24,000 nt of DNA from Clostridiales bacterium (GCA_012719075.1 JAAYBB010000011.1:5886-29885), one strand, 5' to 3'. Positions 1,982 through 23,862 are shown, numbered from the stretch's first letter. Made by a program: numbers and translations. Notes: generated by a model not told the origin, from the sequence alone.

Positions 1982-2010
1982 TTTACAAGGGCGGGCGGGT
2001 CTGATATACT
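1982..2010 (+). promoter_or_regulatory. Sigma-A-type promoter for the first amidohydrolase leader
   Basis: TTTACA (1982-1987), 17-nt spacer, extended -10 TGaTATACT (2002-2010). Confidence 0.55.
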
Positions 2011-2016
2011 GGGCCC

Positions 2017-2257
2017 ACAAAAAATGGATAGAGGTTGCGGCGAGATGAGTACCCGGCGGAGGAGACATCCTGTGAAACCGGTGAAAGGGTAAGCCGCCGA
2101 AGGGGAGCGCAGGTGTGCGCTTCTGCTGGGCCCCGCGCGAAGAGCGCTGGGACTCCTGCCGGCGCCAAGGCCGGCAGAGGCGCTATCGATGGGGACGCTG
2201 GGGACCGCATGTCTGCGGTTCCCGAAGGCTGCATCGCGCGCGATGGGCCTTTTTTTA
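2017..2257 (+). promoter_or_regulatory. Structured leader ending in an intrinsic terminator; atypical T-box-like riboswitch
   Basis: Order of elements matches T-box Stem I: GAUGAGUA (2044-2051), helix CGGCGG 2054-2059 / CCGCCG 2094-2099, AG-bulge-like AGGAGA 2060-2065, and a distal loop containing GGUGAAAG 2080-2087. A 7-nt loop AAGGGGA follows at 2100-2106. A Stem III-like hairpin lies at 2156-2177. The T-box motif CUGGGGACCGCA (2198-2209) is degenerate. The terminator at 2224-2250 is followed by T7 (2250-2256). Confidence 0.5.
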
Positions 2258-2326
2258 TTGCCCTCGCCGCCGGGCCGCCCCCTTCGCCGGCTTCGGCTTT
2301 GCCGCACCCATGGGAGGAGCAGCAAC

Positions 2327-3934
2327 ATGGACAGGGTCCTATACAACGGCAAGATTTACGTGGAGCGCGACCGCTTTGCGCAGGCGCTGTGGATGCAGGA
2401 CGGCGTGATCCGCGCCGTCGGCAGCGACGACAGCGTGCTCGGCGAAGCGCCCGAGGGCAGCGAGCGCATCGACCTGGGGGGCGCCACCGTCATCCCCGGA
2501 TTCAACGACAGCCACCTGCACATGCGCATGCTGGGCGAAAACCTCAAGCTGGTGCAGCTGCACAACGCGGCCTCGCTGCAGGAGGTCATCGACCGGGGCC
2601 GGCAGTTCATCGAAAAAAACGCCCCGCTGCCCGGCACCCTGGTCGCCGGCTTCGGCTGGAACCAGGACTACTTCACCGATGCGCGGCGCATGCCGAACCG
2701 GCATGACCTCGACCAGGTCTCGACCGAGCACCCGGTCTACTTCGCGCGGGCCTGCGGCCACGCCGTCTCGGTCAACACGCTGGCGCTGCAGATGGCCGGC
2801 ATCACGTCGGGCACCCCCCAGCCCGAGGGCGGCCAGTTTGAGCTGGGCGAGGACGGGCAGCCAAACGGCATCTTCCACGAGTGCGCCAGCCGCATGTTTG
2901 CCGACATCACGCCCAAGGTCACGGCCGAGACCATCGCCGACGACATTGCCACCGCCATGGCCTATGCCGCCTCGCTGGGCATCACCTGCGTGCAGAGCAA
3001 CGACTACAACGAGGAAAACCGCCACGAGATGGACGCGGCCCTTGCGCTGCTGCGCGAACGCGGCGGCCTGCTGACCCGCTACTACGCGCAGAACGCCTTT
3101 ACCAACCCCGGGACGCTGGCGGCCCTCTTTGAGGAGGGCTATGCCACCGGGCGGGGGGACGACCTGGTGCGCATGGGGCCGCTCAAGCTGTTTGTGGACG
3201 GCTCGCTCGGCGCCCGCACCGCGCTGCTGCGCGGCCGCTATGCCGACAACGACAAGGCGCAGGGCATCCAGACGCTGTCCGACGAGGTCTTTGACGAGTT
3301 GGTGCGCATCGCCGACGAGGCCGGCGTCTCGGTGGTGACCCACGCCATCGGCGACGGCGCCATCGACAAGGTGCTGTGCAGCTACGAGAAGGTCATCAAG
3401 GGCGGCGACAACAAAAACCGCCATGGCGTGGTGCACGTGCAGATCACCGACAAGCCGATGCTGCAGCGCTTTGTGGATTCGGGCGTGCTGGCGCTGATCC
3501 AGCCCATCTTCCTGCACTACGACATGTACATCGTCGGCGACCGCGTCGGCCCCGAGCTGGAAGAGACCTCCTACGCCTTCGGCAGCATGGTGCGCATGGG
3601 CATCCGCGCCTCCTACGGCACCGACTGTCCGGTCGAAGACCTCAACCCCTTTGAAAACGTCTACACCGCCGTGGCCCGCAGGGACCTCAAGTGCCGGCCC
3701 GAGGGCGGCTACTTCCCCGCCGAGGCCGTGGACGTGCAGACCGCCATCGACTGCTACACGGCCGAGAGCGCCTATTCCTGCTTTGCCGAGGACCGCCTCG
3801 GCCGCCTGCAGCCCGGCTATCTGGCCGACCTCGTGGTGCTGGACGCCGACATCTTCACGGTGCCGCACGAGGACATCCTCAAAATCCGCCCGGTGACCAC
3901 CTACCTGGCCGGCCGGCCGGTCTACCGGCGCTGA
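2327..3934 (+). CDS. Metal-dependent amidohydrolase, Amidohydro_3/YtcJ-like (COG1574-type), paralog 1
   Basis: ATG 2327 is preceded by GGGAGGAG (2312-2319). The track start at 2189 lies inside the upstream leader/terminator. Motifs: IPGFNDSHLHM (HxH metal site), VDGSLGARTA, VTHAIGDGA, HGVVHVQ, SYGTDCPVE. Confidence 0.85.
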   Translation: MDRVLYNGKIYVERDRFAQALWMQDGVIRAVGSDDSVLGEAPEGSERIDLGGATVIPGFNDSHLHMRMLGENLKLVQLHNAASLQEVIDRGRQFIEKNAPLPGTLVAGFGWNQDYFTDARRMPNRHDLDQVSTEHPVYFARACGHAVSVNTLALQMAGITSGTPQPEGGQFELGEDGQPNGIFHECASRMFADITPKVTAETIADDIATAMAYAASLGITCVQSNDYNEENRHEMDAALALLRERGGLLTRYYAQNAFTNPGTLAALFEEGYATGRGDDLVRMGPLKLFVDGSLGARTALLRGRYADNDKAQGIQTLSDEVFDELVRIADEAGVSVVTHAIGDGAIDKVLCSYEKVIKGGDNKNRHGVVHVQITDKPMLQRFVDSGVLALIQPIFLHYDMYIVGDRVGPELEETSYAFGSMVRMGIRASYGTDCPVEDLNPFENVYTAVARRDLKCRPEGGYFPAEAVDVQTAIDCYTAESAYSCFAEDRLGRLQPGYLADLVVLDADIFTVPHEDILKIRPVTTYLAGRPVYRR

Positions 3935-3965
3935 CCGGTGGGGCAGGGGGGCCAAAAATTCGGGC

Positions 3966-3995
3966 TTGACAAAGCGGCCGGCCCCGTGCTATAGT
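3966..3995 (+). promoter_or_regulatory. Sigma-A-type promoter for the second amidohydrolase leader
   Basis: TTGACA (3966-3971), 18-nt spacer, extended -10 TGcTATAGT (3987-3995). Confidence 0.6.
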
Positions 3996-4001
3996 ACGTT
4001 C

Positions 4002-4306
4002 CAAAGCAGAATACCACAAAGGCGATGAAGAGGGCCGTTGGTACACCAGCACCTGCCACAGAGAGTCTCGGGAGCTGAAAAGAGACGCATGTGCCGTATC
4101 GCGTAAAGACTTGGAGCCGCGCACCGACCGCACGCCGTCAACGCGTGCCGAGACTGCGATGGGAGCGCCCATTACAGCGCCAGGGTATCGGCGGCATCCG
4201 CCCGTACCTGTAGAGGTCCGCGCCGCGAGGCGTGGATGAACCAAGGTGGTAACACGAAAGCAGTCCGCTCTCGTCCTTGTCGATGTACAGGGGCGAGAGT
4301 TTTTTT
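4002..4306 (+). promoter_or_regulatory. T-box riboswitch (transcription attenuation type), probable Lys specifier
   Basis: Stem I has a K-turn base (GGC-GAU-GA 4021-4028 with GA-GCC 4114-4118), AG bulge AGAGAG 4060-4065, and an apical hairpin UCUC/GAGA with the loop GGGAGCUGAAAA. Stem III lies at 4217-4236. In the T-box, CAAGG (4242-4246) pairs with CCUUG (4275-4279). This flanks the 7-nt bulge UGGUAAC (4247-4253) and helix ACGA..UCGU. The antiterminator 3' strand overlaps the terminator 5' arm CUCUCGUCC (4268-4276). That arm pairs with GGGCGAGAG (4291-4299), followed by T7 (4300-4306). Confidence 0.85.
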
Positions 4307-4536
4307 ATGCAAAAACGCAAAGGACAATCAGGCCGCGCCGGCAGTCCGGCGCCGTGGGTGAGGAGGGGACTTTGGGAGTGGGCGATCGAAGAGACGGCGC
4401 AGGCCGCCGCACCGAGATGTGCAGAGTTCCCGGCAATAAACGGGCGCTCCGCGGGCAGCGGGCACCGCACACCCCGGACCGGCGGCACCGGCCGCCGCGG
4501 CCGGCATCACTTTGAAAAACGAGGGGAATGGACACC

Positions 4537-6171
4537 ATGAATCGAGTACTCTATAACGGCAACATCTATGTGGAGCGCGACAACTTTGCACAGGCCCTGT
4601 GGATCGAGGGGGACACCATCCGCGCCGTCGGCAGCAACGAGGCCGTGCTGGCCGCCGCGCCGGCCGGCAGCGAGCGCGTCGACCTGAACGGCGCCACCGT
4701 CGTGCCCGGCTTCAACGACAGCCACCTGCACATGCGCTCGCTGGGCATGAGCCTCCGGGTGGTGCAGCTGCAAAACAGCACCTCGATGCAGGAGATCCTC
4801 GAGCGGGGTCGGCGCTTCGTCGCCGAGCAGATGGTCCCGGCCGGCGCGCTGGTCATGGGCCGCGGCTGGAACCACGACTACTTCACCGACGAGCGGCGCA
4901 TGCCGAACCGGCACGACCTCGACCAGGTCTCGACTGTGCACCCGGTCTACTACATCCGCACCTGCGGCCACGCCATCTCGGTCAACACGCTGGCGCTGCA
5001 GATGGCCGGCATCACGTCGGGCACCCCCCAGCCCGAGGGCGGCCAGTTTGAGCTGGGCGAGGACGGGCAGCCCAACGGCATCTTCCACGAGTGCGGCAAC
5101 CGCATGTTTGCGTCGCTGCTGCCCCAGCCCTCGACCGAGACCTTCACCAACGAGCTGCGCGCCGCCATGGCCTACGCCGCCTCGATGGGGGTCACCTGCG
5201 TGCAGAGCAACGACTGCAACGAGGACAACTACCCCGAGATGCTGCGGGCGCTCTCCAACCTCCGCGAGAGCGGCGAACTGCTGGCCCGCTACTATGCGCA
5301 GTCGGGCTTCACCAAGGTGGAAAACCTGCGCCGCTTCCTCGACCAGGGCTACGCCACCGGCCACGGCGACGACCTGGTGCGCATGGGGCCCACCAAGCTG
5401 CTGGTGGACGGCTCGCTCGGCGCCCGCACCGCGCTGCTGCGCGGCCGCTATGCCGACAACGCCGAGGCCCAGGGCATCCAGACGCTGACCAACGAGGTCT
5501 TTGACGAGCTGGTGCGCATGTCCGACGAGGCCGGCTCCACCGTGGTGACCCACGCCATCGGCGACGGCGCCATTGAGATGGTGCTGAACAGCTACGACAA
5601 GGTCATCCAAAACGGCAACAACCGCAACCGCCACGGCGTGGTGCACGTGCAGATCACCGACCGGCCGCTGCTGCAGCGCTTTGTGGACTCGGACGTGCTG
5701 GCGCTGATCCAGCCCATCTTCCTGCACTACGACATGCACATCGTCGGCGACCGCGTCGGCCCCGAGCTGGCCGCCACCTCCTACGCCTTCGGCAGCATGG
5801 TGCGCATGGGCATCCACGCTTCCTACGGCACCGACTGCCCGGTCGAAGACCTCAACCCCTATGAGAACATCTACACCGCCGTGGCCCGCAGGGACCTCAA
5901 GTGCCGGCCAGAGGGCGGCTACTTCCCCGCCGAGGCCGTGGACGTGCAGACCGCCATCGACTGCTACACGGCCGAGAGCGCCTACGCCTGCTTTGCCGAG
6001 GACCGGATGGGCCGCCTGCAGCCCGGCTACCTGGCCGACCTCGTGGTGCTGGACGCCAACATCTTCACGGTGCCGCACGAGGACATCCGGAACATCCGCC
6101 CGCTGGCCACCTATGTGGGCGGCCGCCCGGTCTACCAGGCCGACCGCGCCCGCGTCCCCGCAAACGTGTAG
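4537..6171 (+). CDS. Metal-dependent amidohydrolase, Amidohydro_3/YtcJ-like, paralog 2
   Basis: MNRVLYNGNIY aligns with the MDRVLYNGKIY start of paralog 1. GAGGGG (4521-4526) is about 10 nt upstream of ATG 4537; the in-frame ATG 4528 sits too close to it. Same HxH and downstream motifs as paralog 1, plus a short C-terminal extension (…QADRARVPANV). Confidence 0.85.
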   Translation: MNRVLYNGNIYVERDNFAQALWIEGDTIRAVGSNEAVLAAAPAGSERVDLNGATVVPGFNDSHLHMRSLGMSLRVVQLQNSTSMQEILERGRRFVAEQMVPAGALVMGRGWNHDYFTDERRMPNRHDLDQVSTVHPVYYIRTCGHAISVNTLALQMAGITSGTPQPEGGQFELGEDGQPNGIFHECGNRMFASLLPQPSTETFTNELRAAMAYAASMGVTCVQSNDCNEDNYPEMLRALSNLRESGELLARYYAQSGFTKVENLRRFLDQGYATGHGDDLVRMGPTKLLVDGSLGARTALLRGRYADNAEAQGIQTLTNEVFDELVRMSDEAGSTVVTHAIGDGAIEMVLNSYDKVIQNGNNRNRHGVVHVQITDRPLLQRFVDSDVLALIQPIFLHYDMHIVGDRVGPELAATSYAFGSMVRMGIHASYGTDCPVEDLNPYENIYTAVARRDLKCRPEGGYFPAEAVDVQTAIDCYTAESAYACFAEDRMGRLQPGYLADLVVLDANIFTVPHEDIRNIRPLATYVGGRPVYQADRARVPANV

Positions 6172-6219
6172 GACGGCAGTCCAGGGGGTACTCGCCACGG
6201 GGCGGGCGGCCTTGGGGGT

Positions 6220-6253
6220 GTCGCTCAAAATAAGCGCGCTTATTTTGAGCGAC
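6220..6253. repeat. 34-bp perfect palindrome with an AT-rich core
   Basis: GTCGCTCAAAATAAGCG|CGCTTATTTTGAGCGAC. Every position is self-complementary. No adjacent T-tract on either strand. Confidence 0.9.
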
Positions 6254-6315
6254 GGATTCACGGCCCCCCGATGCCTCTGAATGAGGTCCTCCTGAACAGG
6301 GGGCGCAAAAACCAT

Positions 6316-6346
6316 AAAAAAAGAGCCGCGCAAGCGGCTCTTTTTG
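6316..6346 (+). terminator. Intrinsic terminator after the amidohydrolase pair (bidirectional shape)
   Basis: GAGCCGC (6323-6329), loop GCAA, GCGGCTC (6334-6340), then T5 (6341-6345). An A-run lies upstream. Confidence 0.75.
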
Positions 6347-6392: not shown

Positions 6393-6421
6393 TTGCAATC
6401 AATGGGGCGGTGCGATATAAT
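6393..6421 (+). promoter_or_regulatory. Candidate promoter for the EF-G paralog
   Basis: TTGCAA (6393-6398), 17-nt spacer, TATAAT (6416-6421). This implies a ~220-nt leader. Confidence 0.5.
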
Positions 6422-6646
6422 AAAGGGCATGAGCGCCCTCGTTTTCGGGGTTTTTGGGGGCGCGCGAAACCGCGGTGCAGGGTCCGGCAAGGCTGCAAGG
6501 CGCCATGGCACCCCGTCAGGGGGGCGCTCTTGGGGCGGCGGCCGGGCGGCGCGCCGATCGATTAAATTAAGGCGGCCGCACGCCGAAAGAGCGGCAACCG
6601 CGCCGGAGCGCAGAGGTCCGGCCCATGCGGTTGTAGGAGGGACCAT

Positions 6647-8713
6647 ATGAAGCAATACCCCATGGACAAGGTGCGAAACGTCGTCTTACTCGGGCAGGGG
6701 CGCTCGGGGAAGACATCCTTTGTGGAGGCCGCCCTGTATCTGAACAAGGGGACCGACCGCTTTGGCAAGGTGAATGACGGCACGACGGTCAGCGACTACG
6801 ACCCGGAGGAAATCAGGCGCCAGATCTCCATCTCGCTGACCGTGGCGCCGGTGGAATATCAGGGCTGCAAGCTCAACCTGATCGACACCCCCGGCTACCT
6901 CGACTTTGTCGGCGAGGTCATGCAGGGTGTGCGCGTGGCGGAGACCGCGCTGATCGTGGTCTCGGGCAAGGACGGCCCCGGCGTGGGCACCGAAAAGGGC
7001 TTTGCCTACGCCACGGCGGGCGGGCTGTCCAAGCTGTTCTTCGTCGGCCGCATGGACGAGGAGCACGTGGACTACTTCAAGGTGGTCGAGCAGCTGCGCG
7101 AGACCTTTGGCATCTCGGTCTGCCCGATCAACTGCCCGATCATGGAGGGCGATCGCATGGTCGGCCTGGTCGACTTTGTCGAGCGCAACGTCAAGACCTT
7201 TAAAAACGGCGTGGCCGAGGTCAGGGAGCTGCCCGAGGACATCGGGCCGCAGGCCTCCCACCTGTGGGACATGCTCAGCGAGTCGGTGGCCGAAACCTCC
7301 GAGGAGCTGATGGAGAAGTACTTCGGCGGGGAGTACTTCACGCGGGACGAGACGGTGCAGGCCCTCAAGGCCGGCATTGCCGAAGGCACCATCGCGCCGG
7401 TCATGTGCGGCTCGGCCATCTCGCTCGAGGGGGTCAACCTGGTGGTCGACATGCTGGCCAAGGCCACCCCCTCGCCGGCCGACCGCGGCGAGACCCAGGC
7501 CACCGTCGACGGCAAGGAGGCCGCGCTCAAGGCCGACCCGGCCGGCGACCTGGCCGCCATCGTCTTCAAGACCGTGGCCGACCCCTTCGTGGGCAAGATG
7601 TCCTTCTTCAAGGTGGTCTCGGGCACCATGAAGGCCGACAGCCAGGTCACCAACAGCACCAACGGGCAGAATGAAAAGATCGGCAAGCTGTTCTTCATCC
7701 GCGGCAACAAGCAGCAGGAGACCGCCGCGGTGGGGGCCGGCGACATCGGCTTTGTCAGCAAGCTGGGCGCCACTGTGACCGGCGACACCCTCTGCGCGGC
7801 CGGCAAGAAGATCGTGCTGCCCGGCATCACCTTCCCGCGCCCGGCCTATGCCATGAGCATCTCGCCGCTGGCCAAGGGGGATGAGGAGAAGATCTCGACC
7901 GGCCTGCAGCGCCTGGCCGAGGAGGACCGCACCTTCACCTATGCGCTCAACCCCGAGACCAAGCAGCAGGTCGTCTCCGGCCTGGGCGACGTGCACCTCG
8001 ACGTGCTGGTCAGCAAGCTCAAGAACAAGTTCGGCACCGGCGTCGAGCTGGGGCCGATCAAGGTGCCCTACCGCGAGACCATCCGCAAGAAGGTCAAGGT
8101 GCAGGGCCGCCACAAGAAGCAGTCGGGCGGCCACGGCCAGTTTGGCGACGTCTGGGTCGAGTTCGAGCCCGGCGACACCGAAGACCTGATCTTCGAGGAG
8201 CACGTCTTTGGCGGCTCGGTGCCCAAGAACTTCTTCCCGGCCGTCGAAAAGGGCCTGCGCGAGTCCATCCAGAAGGGCGTTTTGGCCGGCTATCCGGTGG
8301 TCAACCTCAAGGCCACGCTGGTGGACGGCTCCTACCACCCGGTCGACTCCTCCGAAATGGCCTTTAAGGTGGCCGCCAACCTGGCCTACAAGGCCGGCAT
8401 GACGCAGGCCAGCCCCGTGCTGCTCGAGCCCATCGGCAGCCTCAAGGTCCGGATTCCCGACAGCATGATGGGCGACATTATCGGCGACATCAACAAGCGC
8501 CGCGGCCGCATTCTGGGCATGAACCCGGTGGCCGGCGGCCTGCAGGAGGTGGACGCCGAGGTGCCGATGGCCGAGATGAACGGCTACGCCGTCGACCTGC
8601 GCTCCATGACCCAGGGCCGGGGCGACTTTGAGCTGGAGCTCGCCCGCTACGAGGAGGCGCCGGCCAATGTGGCCCAGAAGGTCATCCAGGAGGCCGCCGC
8701 CGGCGAGGAGTGA
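6647..8713 (+). CDS. Elongation factor G paralog (EFG-II-like translational GTPase)
   Basis: AGGAGGG RBS at 6634-6640. 688 aa with a GTPase domain (GQGRSGKT, DTPGY, GRMD) and EF-G domains II-V (e.g. HLDVLVSKLKNKFG, GGHGQFGDVW, VDGSYHPVDSSEMAFK, LLEPI). The DxPGY form is as recalled for Thermus EF-G-2. Confidence 0.9.
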   Translation: MKQYPMDKVRNVVLLGQGRSGKTSFVEAALYLNKGTDRFGKVNDGTTVSDYDPEEIRRQISISLTVAPVEYQGCKLNLIDTPGYLDFVGEVMQGVRVAETALIVVSGKDGPGVGTEKGFAYATAGGLSKLFFVGRMDEEHVDYFKVVEQLRETFGISVCPINCPIMEGDRMVGLVDFVERNVKTFKNGVAEVRELPEDIGPQASHLWDMLSESVAETSEELMEKYFGGEYFTRDETVQALKAGIAEGTIAPVMCGSAISLEGVNLVVDMLAKATPSPADRGETQATVDGKEAALKADPAGDLAAIVFKTVADPFVGKMSFFKVVSGTMKADSQVTNSTNGQNEKIGKLFFIRGNKQQETAAVGAGDIGFVSKLGATVTGDTLCAAGKKIVLPGITFPRPAYAMSISPLAKGDEEKISTGLQRLAEEDRTFTYALNPETKQQVVSGLGDVHLDVLVSKLKNKFGTGVELGPIKVPYRETIRKKVKVQGRHKKQSGGHGQFGDVWVEFEPGDTEDLIFEEHVFGGSVPKNFFPAVEKGLRESIQKGVLAGYPVVNLKATLVDGSYHPVDSSEMAFKVAANLAYKAGMTQASPVLLEPIGSLKVRIPDSMMGDIIGDINKRRGRILGMNPVAGGLQEVDAEVPMAEMNGYAVDLRSMTQGRGDFELELARYEEAPANVAQKVIQEAAAGEE

Positions 8714-23632: not shown

Positions 23633-23862
23633 GCTCTCACCTCCTGCGAGTGGAATGGTCATCGGGGGTTTTCCATCAGCGGGGGCGGAGAAATAAAAAG
23701 CCCCTTTGCATGCCGCAAAGGAGCGAGAAAACCGACGGGCAGCCAAACCCGGGAGTCGGGCGGCAGGGCGGTTTCGCATCCCCCTCGGCAGGCCTATTTC
23801 AGCGATAACGCACCTGCTGTCTTCGGTTGATGACCTATGAAATTGTAGGCGATTTTGAACGC
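23633..23862 (-). promoter_or_regulatory. rplJ leader with attenuator hairpin (ribosomal protein L10 leader-type)
   Basis: ~230-nt 5' UTR between the promoter and rplJ. On the minus strand it contains the hairpin CCTTTGC-GGCAT-GCAAAGG (plus coordinates 23703-23721). GGCTTTTTATTT follows it (minus strand), which is the attenuator layout known for Firmicute L10 leaders. The conserved L10-binding core was not verified. Confidence 0.5.

Follow-up and report, generated by a model that had tools for sequence, protein, structure and literature searches.

Two amidohydrolase genes stand side by side in a 24,000-nucleotide (nt) stretch of DNA from a Clostridiales bacterium (GCA_012719075.1 JAAYBB010000011.1:5886-29885), and each of them is preceded by its own leader. 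The whole stretch is called the window below, and positions are counted from its first letter. The locus (1982-6346) raises the question of what the two leaders sense and what the two enzymes release. An earlier description made from the DNA alone (the sequence-only reading) had proposed that both leaders sense tRNA and that the duplicated enzymes are induced by starvation for different amino acids, one leader being Gly-like and the other Lys-specific. As described below, it is highly probable that both leaders report lysine, the first as a lysine riboswitch (L-box) and the second as a T-box with a Lys specifier. We consider it likely that the locus encodes a lysine-starvation-induced pair of cytoplasmic metal-dependent amidohydrolases, which most likely release L-lysine from an imported lysine derivative.

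The two genes and their leaders

The two genes encode YtcJ-like (PF07969) amidohydrolases and are arranged in tandem, head to tail, on the plus strand, on which all elements of the unit lie unless stated otherwise. Paralog 1 (2327-3934; 535 amino acids; NLT57474.1; A-type in the grouping given below) has a ribosome-binding site, GGGAGGAG, at 2312-2319. Its longest open reading frame (ORF) begins at 2189, inside the leader; the start at 2327 has the ribosome-binding site and agrees with the deposited protein. Paralog 2 (4537-6171; 544 amino acids; NLT57475.1; B-type) is preceded by the ribosome-binding site GAGGGG at 4521-4526. The two proteins are 76% identical over 534 residues without gaps. 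Promoter 1 (1982-2010; TTTACA-17-TATACT with a TG extension) precedes leader 1, and its hexamers are identical at the homologous place in a related locus, L081 (ENA ERZ27245258 k141_1500013). Promoter 2 (3966-3995; TTGACA-18-TATAGT, also with a TG extension) precedes leader 2. A consensus scan found three promoter-like sites in the region, whereas 0.4 were expected from shuffled sequences. The terminator scan found no plus-strand terminator between the paralog 1 stop codon (3934) and promoter 2, and a bidirectional intrinsic terminator, a hairpin acting on both strands at 6316-6346, closes the two-gene unit. The two leaders have no similarity to each other. Thus, the layout given by the sequence-only reading was borne out: two highly similar YtcJ-like genes head to tail, a consensus-like promoter for each of them, no terminator between the first stop codon and the second promoter, one shared terminator, and two non-homologous leaders.

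Leader 1 carries an aptamer at 2021-2193. This region matched the lysine riboswitch family RF00168 over model positions 1-182 of 182 with 64.7 bits (gathering score, 30) and an E-value of 5e-15, and the Rfam scan gave no T-box match in leader 1. With R1, our own lysine-riboswitch covariance model built from Rfam-confirmed matches, the score was 153 bits. All of the core motifs of the five-helix junction of RF00168 are present (AGAGGNGC, GAGUA, GCCGAAG, CUGGG, GGACU and GAGGCGCUA) and are invariant across seven homologs. The expression platform at 2227-2256 is an intrinsic terminator, in which the hairpin GGCUGCAUCGCG/CGCGAUGGGCC is followed by U7; this hairpin is kept in L081 and in two further related loci, L082 and L084. 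When the leader was folded without the 5′ strand of helix P1, the 3′ strand of P1 paired with the 3′ half of the terminator hairpin. Thus, the antiterminator alternative expected of a lysine OFF switch can form in the predicted structure. We assign leader 1 to the lysine riboswitches and not to the T-boxes, and it would respond to lysine.

Leader 2 (4016-4281) matched the T-box family RF00230 over its full length with 49.1 bits and an E-value of 1e-9. The Rfam scan at gathering thresholds missed this T-box, and a permissive scan recovered it. Stem I contains a K-turn at its base (GCGAUGA...GGAGC), a specifier loop and an AGAGA bulge. The T-box sequence AAGGUGGUAACACG is located at 4243-4256, and positions 4247-4250 within it form the UGGU bulge. 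In the antiterminator, the 3′ strand (CUCGUCCUU) doubles as the 5′ strand of the terminator, which spans 4267-4307 and has a 14-bp stem (hairpin, 4267-4300) followed by a run of seven U (T7 in the DNA).

The specifier was read both from the Rfam alignment and in a manual register. UAAAGA directly precedes a three-pair helix (G-A-G with C-U-U) under the specifier loop, and the codon is either AAA at 4105-4107, followed by the purine G, or AAG at 4106-4108, followed by the purine A; both registers specify Lys. The T-box of L081, which scores 44.8 bits against RF00230, is 85% identical to leader 2 and has CAAAGC at the equivalent place. The AAAG block is invariant and adjoins the base helix of Stem I in both copies despite differing flanks (GUAAAGAC in the window versus CCAAAGCC in L081); the middle helix has been rebuilt. 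Shifting the register by -1 gives UAA in one copy and CAA in the other. Because these disagree, Lys is the only consistent reading of the specifier. The two copies also differ by a U-to-C change in the strand common to antiterminator and terminator, and both pairing partners compensate for it (ACGAA to ACGGA; GCGAGAG to GAUGGGAG). In addition, a U-A pair in Stem I is replaced by C-G, and G-U pairs in Stem III are exchanged for G-C. As far as two sequences can indicate, this is the pattern expected of a working two-state switch. Every canonical T-box part is present in leader 2, and from these features we regard it as a real T-box with a Lys specifier, which would respond to tRNALys.

T-boxes specific for Lys are very rare and are known only for lysyl-tRNA synthetase genes and a few permeases; examples are B. 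cereus lysK, C. beijerinckii and S. thermophilum lysS, and the B. halodurans BH0807 permease (PMC2916919, PMC2494555). Leader 2 resembles them in transcription attenuation, in the Lys codon specifier and in the UGGU bulge for an A73 discriminator. In contrast, leader 2 controls a hydrolase, scores below the Rfam threshold and has an atypical S-turn in Stem I. Thus, a hydrolase would join the very short list of genes controlled by a Lys T-box.

Therefore, the proposal of a tRNA-sensing leader on each gene is upheld for leader 2 and fails for leader 1. Split specificity fails with it: the sequence-only reading had made this idea depend on both leaders responding to tRNA, leader 1 is predicted not to do so, and both leaders report lysine rather than two different amino acids.

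We propose that the two sensors work as follows. When lysine is plentiful, the aptamer would close helix P1, the terminator at 2227-2256 would form, and transcription from promoter 1 would stop. Under lysine scarcity, the 3′ half of the terminator would instead be bound by the 3′ strand of P1, so that RNA polymerase would read into paralog 1. For paralog 2, uncharged tRNALys would pair at two places: its anticodon would read AAA or AAG in Stem I, and the UGGU bulge would take up its free NCCA end; the bound tRNA would stabilize the antiterminator, block the terminator at 4267-4307 and open the gene. Because there is no terminator between the genes, transcripts that escape the L-box would also enter the T-box, so that paralog 2 would be gated by tRNALys charging from either promoter. 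The enzymes would then hydrolyze an imported lysine conjugate and replenish lysine.

Sensors in related loci and the history of the paralogs

The lysine riboswitch model R1 was run on 80 genome loci encoding relatives of the two enzymes at 46-56% identity; 80 metagenome loci encoding more distant relatives (38-49% identity) were also examined for the L-box. A same-strand L-box was found in 57 of the 80 genome loci, directly upstream of the amidohydrolase gene in nine of them and separated from it by a permease gene in 48. In these 48 loci the L-box lies approximately 1.5 kb upstream of the amidohydrolase gene; nine of the 23 L-box-negative genome loci have less than 1.4 kb of upstream sequence. 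About 23 of the 80 metagenome loci also possess an L-box. The intervening gene encodes an APC-superfamily permease (PF13520), which among the NCBIfam models is most similar to the LAT subfamily and to the fructoselysine transporter FrlA. Among the carriers are Intestinimonas butyriciproducens, Anaerofilum hominis, Bittarella, Neobittarella, Pygmaiobacter, many Oscillospiraceae and more than 12 Sutterella/Aphodousia assemblies. In the wider neighborhoods no dap or lys genes were found, and gene context beyond the two module genes is not conserved. From the family-wide module of L-box, LAT/FrlA-like APC permease and amidohydrolase we infer uptake and hydrolysis of a lysine conjugate. Thus, the amino-acid-salvage module of the sequence-only reading receives strong support for lysine from the recurring L-box, and not for two different amino acids. 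The identity and anatomy of both sensors and this conserved association are evident from the sequence comparisons.

The arrangement of the sensors varies among the loci. L069 (352-3132) contains an L-box, the amidohydrolase gene, a second L-box and the permease gene, and L097 (64-4102) contains two tandem paralogs, 70% identical, behind separate L-boxes; the two loci are thus independent examples in which every gene has kept a sensor. Other relatives are not under L-box control. For example, the permease-hydrolase pair of Sediminispirochaeta is located behind a GntR regulator without an L-box. In the Lutispora thermophila-like loci L169 and L170 (2460-9312), genes for an Asp/Glu racemase, an M55 D-aminopeptidase, an APC permease and two tandem amidohydrolase paralogs sit downstream of a sigma-54 activator, also without an L-box. 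The Lutispora context hints that some family members act on D-amino-acid substrates.

The module of L-box, APC permease and amidohydrolase was also observed in Sutterella/Aphodousia (Burkholderiales), namely in L043, L050, L051, L053, L057, L062, L064, L066, L067, L069-L071 and L075-L077, and some of these contigs are longer than 150 kb. This observation suggests that the operon and its riboswitch were horizontally transferred between gut Firmicutes and Sutterellaceae.

A comparable system has been described in C. difficile, in which an L-box lies upstream of yfcC and an M20D amidohydrolase gene (PMC11477304). In both cases an OFF riboswitch with an intrinsic terminator precedes a transporter and an amidohydrolase, which are expressed at low lysine. 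However, the enzyme here is YtcJ-like (PF07969) and not M20D, and the transporter of the family is APC/LAT-type and not YfcC, NhaC, LysP or YvsH. B. subtilis lysC and yvsH are further genes of lysine riboswitch regulons to which the module can be likened. Full-text literature searches found no paper linking PF07969, COG1574 or YtcJ enzymes to any riboswitch.

The sequence-only reading had suggested a survey of orthologous loci for T-boxes. A regulator does recur with the family, but it is the lysine riboswitch; among 166 loci searched with permissive Rfam thresholds and with an nhmmer profile of the two T-boxes, no T-box was found beyond the window and L081. T-box cores picked up by a regular-expression screen in L011, L031 and L144 were rejected, since Rfam was negative for them at permissive thresholds, and the best-conserved T-box block, searched as an exact pattern, had no match in the metagenome collection.

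In L081 (339-898), two sensors follow one promoter, first an L-box (339-513) and then a T-box (599-871), and each has a terminator of its own; behind them lies a single amidohydrolase gene, whose identity is 67% to paralog 1 and 71% to paralog 2. The upstream gene encodes the C-terminus of TrkH, as in the window. By this comparison, the window and L081 are syntenic and differ by the presence or absence of paralog 1 and promoter 2 between the two sensors. The more distant L082 contains TrkA, TrkH, an L-box and a single gene.

The relationship between the two paralogs is not simple. In a neighbor-joining distance tree they are sisters, and their coding DNA, 85% identical, contains stretches of up to 97 nt without a single difference. 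However, no similarity was found between their flanks, and at the sites where they differ, L081 agrees with paralog 2 at 52 and with paralog 1 at 28, whereas L165 (P0003) agrees with paralog 1 at 53 and with paralog 2 at 24 (Fisher p = 3e-5); L082 and L166 were neutral in this test. Paralog 2 is closer than paralog 1 to the genes of L081 and L084, and in residues 61-120 it shares 70-72% identity with the L081 and L084 proteins, as against only 57% with paralog 1. Because of the informative-site counts and the dissimilar flanks, we rejected a clean recent duplication with partitioning of the leaders, despite the tree. We conclude from these alignments that two older sub-lineages exist, A (paralog 1 and L165) and B (paralog 2, L081 and L084), and that their conserved core either has been homogenized in part or is strongly constrained. 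The naive ratio of nonsynonymous to synonymous substitution (dN/dS) between the paralogs is 0.73 and rises to approximately 1.3 in residues 61-120 and 181-240, as compared with 0.1-0.5 for ortholog pairs. This divergence, in segments between the HxH strand and the carboxylated-lysine strand, is suggestive, but we give it little weight because of the mosaic history and a GC content at third codon positions of 93-95%. The A and B sub-lineages are compatible with functional specialization, but within lysine metabolism.

The T-box would thus belong to the B lineage, and in L081 an L-box and a T-box in front of one B-type gene would form a gate of the type "NOT lysine AND uncharged tRNALys". The window itself holds no such tandem gate, since a 1.6-kb gene and a promoter separate its sensors. 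In the catalogue of tandem riboswitches (Sherlock et al. 2022, Table 2; PMC9481103), combinations such as SAM-I/T-box-Met and 14 double lysine riboswitches are listed, and a lysine/T-box-Lys pair is absent from that table. L081 resembles the catalogued gates in that a metabolite OFF riboswitch and an ON T-box for the cognate tRNA share one 5′ untranslated region (UTR), each with its terminator; in the window, by contrast, the two sensors are divided between paralogous genes. Because the same two RNA sensors are split between paralogs in one locus and fused in the other, the two loci form a natural pair in which the evolution of tandem gates can be studied. The pair is also suited to comparing the physiology of free amino acid sensing with that of tRNA charging.

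A further leader was observed in L084 (440-830), where approximately 400 nt without a detectable T-box lie between an L-box terminator-like hairpin and the B-type gene. The partial gene downstream was considered as a second paralog and rejected; it carries an aconitase-like GSDSHT motif.

Products and substrates of the amidohydrolases

Both paralogs are clear members of Amidohydro_3 (PF07969), with E-values of 2e-97 and 2.5e-101 and scores of 328 and 341 bits against a cut-off of 29.7, and no NCBIfam equivalog model came near its cut-off for either of them. The metal ligands H63, H65, K287, H339, H370 and D433 (HxH, carboxylated Lys, His, His and Asp) are invariant in an alignment of 24 sequences, and both ORFs are intact with complete metal sites. 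The AlphaFold model of paralog 1 is confident (predicted local distance difference test, pLDDT, 93; predicted template modeling score, pTM, 0.89). AlphaFold and Foldseek together gave a TIM barrel and a β-sandwich with a family-specific insertion. The closest solved structures are the Pyrococcus proteins 3ICJ and 3IGH (Foldseek E approximately 1e-42; template modeling score TMq, 0.75-0.77; 28-29% identity), which are functionally uncharacterized and hence uninformative on the substrate. No characterized close relative was found among solved structures; the characterized enzymes are all remote, with a template modeling (TM) score of approximately 0.5. The clade is populous: of 8000 scored candidates, 3757 were homologs with E-values under 1e-20, and human or animal gut bacteria contributed many of these.

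A precedent for the chemistry is available in the same family. The Streptomyces ε-lysine acylases (ELAs) SmELA, ScELA, SamELA and SgELA (EC 3.5.1.17) are YtcJ-like enzymes whose product is L-lysine (PMC10699109). They share with the two paralogs the family, a similar length (approximately 538 amino acids in the acylases) and the same metal ligands. SgELA, taken from the supplement of PMC10699109, aligned over its full length with 28% identity and an E-value of 2e-35. This similarity is at the level of the family and does not amount to orthology; moreover, the acylases are actinobacterial, have been studied for biocatalysis, and have no known riboswitch control or permease partner. SgELA is thus a precedent for the chemistry and not evidence of orthology.

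The riboswitch context points to lysine or a metabolic equivalent as the product, and we hold with fair confidence that the product is lysine itself. Since the YtcJ-like family includes the characterized ε-lysine acylases, we favor Nε-acyl-L-lysine among the candidate substrates, although this assignment is tentative and has less than an even chance of being correct. If it is right, the enzymes would provide a route by which gut bacteria recycle acylated lysine. The placement of two neighboring paralogs under sensors of lysine shortage makes it probable, as judged from the leaders, that the enzyme family is a lysine-salvage system. This gives a testable functional handle on a clade that is annotated merely as "amidohydrolase".

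Several points weigh against this reading of the locus. At 28%, the identity to SgELA is no closer than that to the uncharacterized archaeal proteins 3IGH and 3ICJ, and at such a distance substrate specificity cannot be transferred from an alignment. The T-box score of leader 2 is below the Rfam gathering score of 93, the S-turn of its Stem I (AGUA/GAA) is non-canonical, and the link between a T-box and this amidohydrolase family comes from two sequences. No permease gene is present in the window, so that the locus lacks the partner usual for its family, and the scores of the permeases in the related loci are far under the curated cut-offs for LAT and FrlA. The Lutispora and Sediminispirochaeta contexts indicate that the permease-hydrolase module is not intrinsically tied to lysine. 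Finally, the spacer of approximately 220 nt ahead of paralog 2 is unexplained.

Among the alternatives, the one that survives best keeps the same regulation and replaces the substrate by another lysine-yielding compound, such as an Nα-acyl-lysine, a dipeptide with C-terminal Lys, ε-(γ-glutamyl)-lysine, homocitrulline or L-lysine lactam. The family is functionally very diverse (PMC13081902), identity to SgELA is just 28%, and in the analogous L-box, yfcC and M20D system of C. difficile the substrate of the amidohydrolase is also uncharacterized (PMC11477304). The third-best structural neighbor is the Lys/Arg carboxypeptidase Cc2672, though with a TM score of approximately 0.5, and the racemase and D-aminopeptidase in the Lutispora context fit a different substrate as well. 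Against this, the only characterized YtcJ-like members that release lysine are Nε-acylases. In addition, APC/LAT permeases transport single amino acids or side-chain derivatives and not peptides. We therefore regard another lysine-yielding substrate as unlikely, while giving it appreciable weight.

It is much less probable that the two amidohydrolases belong to lysine biosynthesis and are repressed by lysine like the dap and lys genes; a non-orthologous N-acetyl- or N-succinyl-LL-diaminopimelate deacylase would be one such possibility. L-boxes classically control dap/lys operons, some of which contain an M20-type amidohydrolase (PMC5584792), and the copies in the window have no adjacent permease gene. 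However, the partner in 48 of the 57 L-box loci is a permease and not a dap/lys gene, such genes are absent from the wider neighborhoods, and the relatives under GntR or sigma-54 control are found in catabolic-looking contexts.

It is equally improbable that the reaction yields no lysine and is placed under lysine control for some other end, for example to clear a toxic lysine analogue or amide or to match nitrogen scavenging to the lysine status, or that the T-box copy is a decaying relic with redundant paralogs. The substrate is not established, the T-box is below threshold, the spacer lacks an explanation and family members exist outside lysine control, all of which would fit. In contrast, compensatory changes between the window and L081 have kept both alternative helices of the T-box, and both ORFs are intact with complete metal sites. 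Furthermore, the genes in riboswitch and T-box regulons nearly always serve to make, take up or recycle the compound that is sensed (PMC3766115, PMC2494555). The idea of two T-boxes whose specifiers differ (Gly-like and Lys), so that the genes are induced in different starvations, can be practically dismissed, as leader 1 gives a full-length lysine riboswitch match of 64.7 bits and no T-box match, and its homologs in the 57 loci are all L-boxes. A function as bile-salt hydrolases, considered in view of a 2026 preprint on metallo-bile-salt hydrolases, was set aside, since the enzymes of that preprint are 101-kDa proteins and fall into another cluster.

Returning to lysine salvage, the observations can be extended to a broader picture, which as a whole is doubtful. 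The YtcJ-like clade and its LAT/FrlA-like permease may form a widespread system for scavenging modified lysine in gut anaerobes and Sutterella, in which one lineage has two specialized paralogs placed on two tiers of lysine sensing and loss or insertion of a paralog produces the tandem gate of L081. If this were true, the scavenged substrates might be, for example, free Nε-acetyl-lysine or other Nε-acyl-lysines from digested host, dietary or microbial proteins. The two tiers would be the free lysine pool, read by the L-box, and translational demand, read by the Lys T-box. L081 would then represent an uncatalogued combination of riboswitch and T-box and a concrete example of how a tandem RNA gate originates.

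Spacer, terminators and the remainder of the window

The GC-rich spacer of approximately 220 nt (4308-4536) extends from the T-box terminator to the start codon of paralog 2. It had no Rfam match and no significant fold (z = -0.48), and a homolog of it was found neither in the 166 loci nor in the rest of the window. L081 has only approximately 75 nt at this place. The spacer was considered as a degenerate L-box and rejected, since the R1 covariance model matches the window only once.

At the upstream end of the unit, a hairpin at 1925-1951 (AAATCGCCGCTG...CAGCGGCGATTT) separates the stop codon of trkH from promoter 1. It was called a minus-strand terminator in the scan and probably insulates the amidohydrolase unit from trkH. 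At the downstream end, a perfect 34-nt palindrome, GTCGCTCAAAATAAGCGCGCTTATTTTGAGCGAC, was observed at 6220-6253, shortly past the end of the paralog 2 coding sequence and ahead of the shared terminator (6316-6346). This palindrome could be a hairpin that stabilizes the mRNA or a protein-binding site.

The remainder of the window encodes housekeeping functions: TrkA-C, TrkH, a paralog of elongation factor G (EF-G), frr, uppS, cdsA, rseP, ispG, polC and an extracytoplasmic function (ECF) sigma factor. No tRNA gene is present in the window. In the region 6393-6647, a promoter-like sequence (TTGCAA-17-TATAAT) is followed by a GC-rich 5′ UTR of approximately 225 nt and the EF-G paralog gene (6647-8713); at gathering thresholds, Rfam gave no match for this 5′ UTR. 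On the minus strand, a leader of the ribosomal protein L10 family (RF00557, 61.7 bits) is located at 23685-23844.

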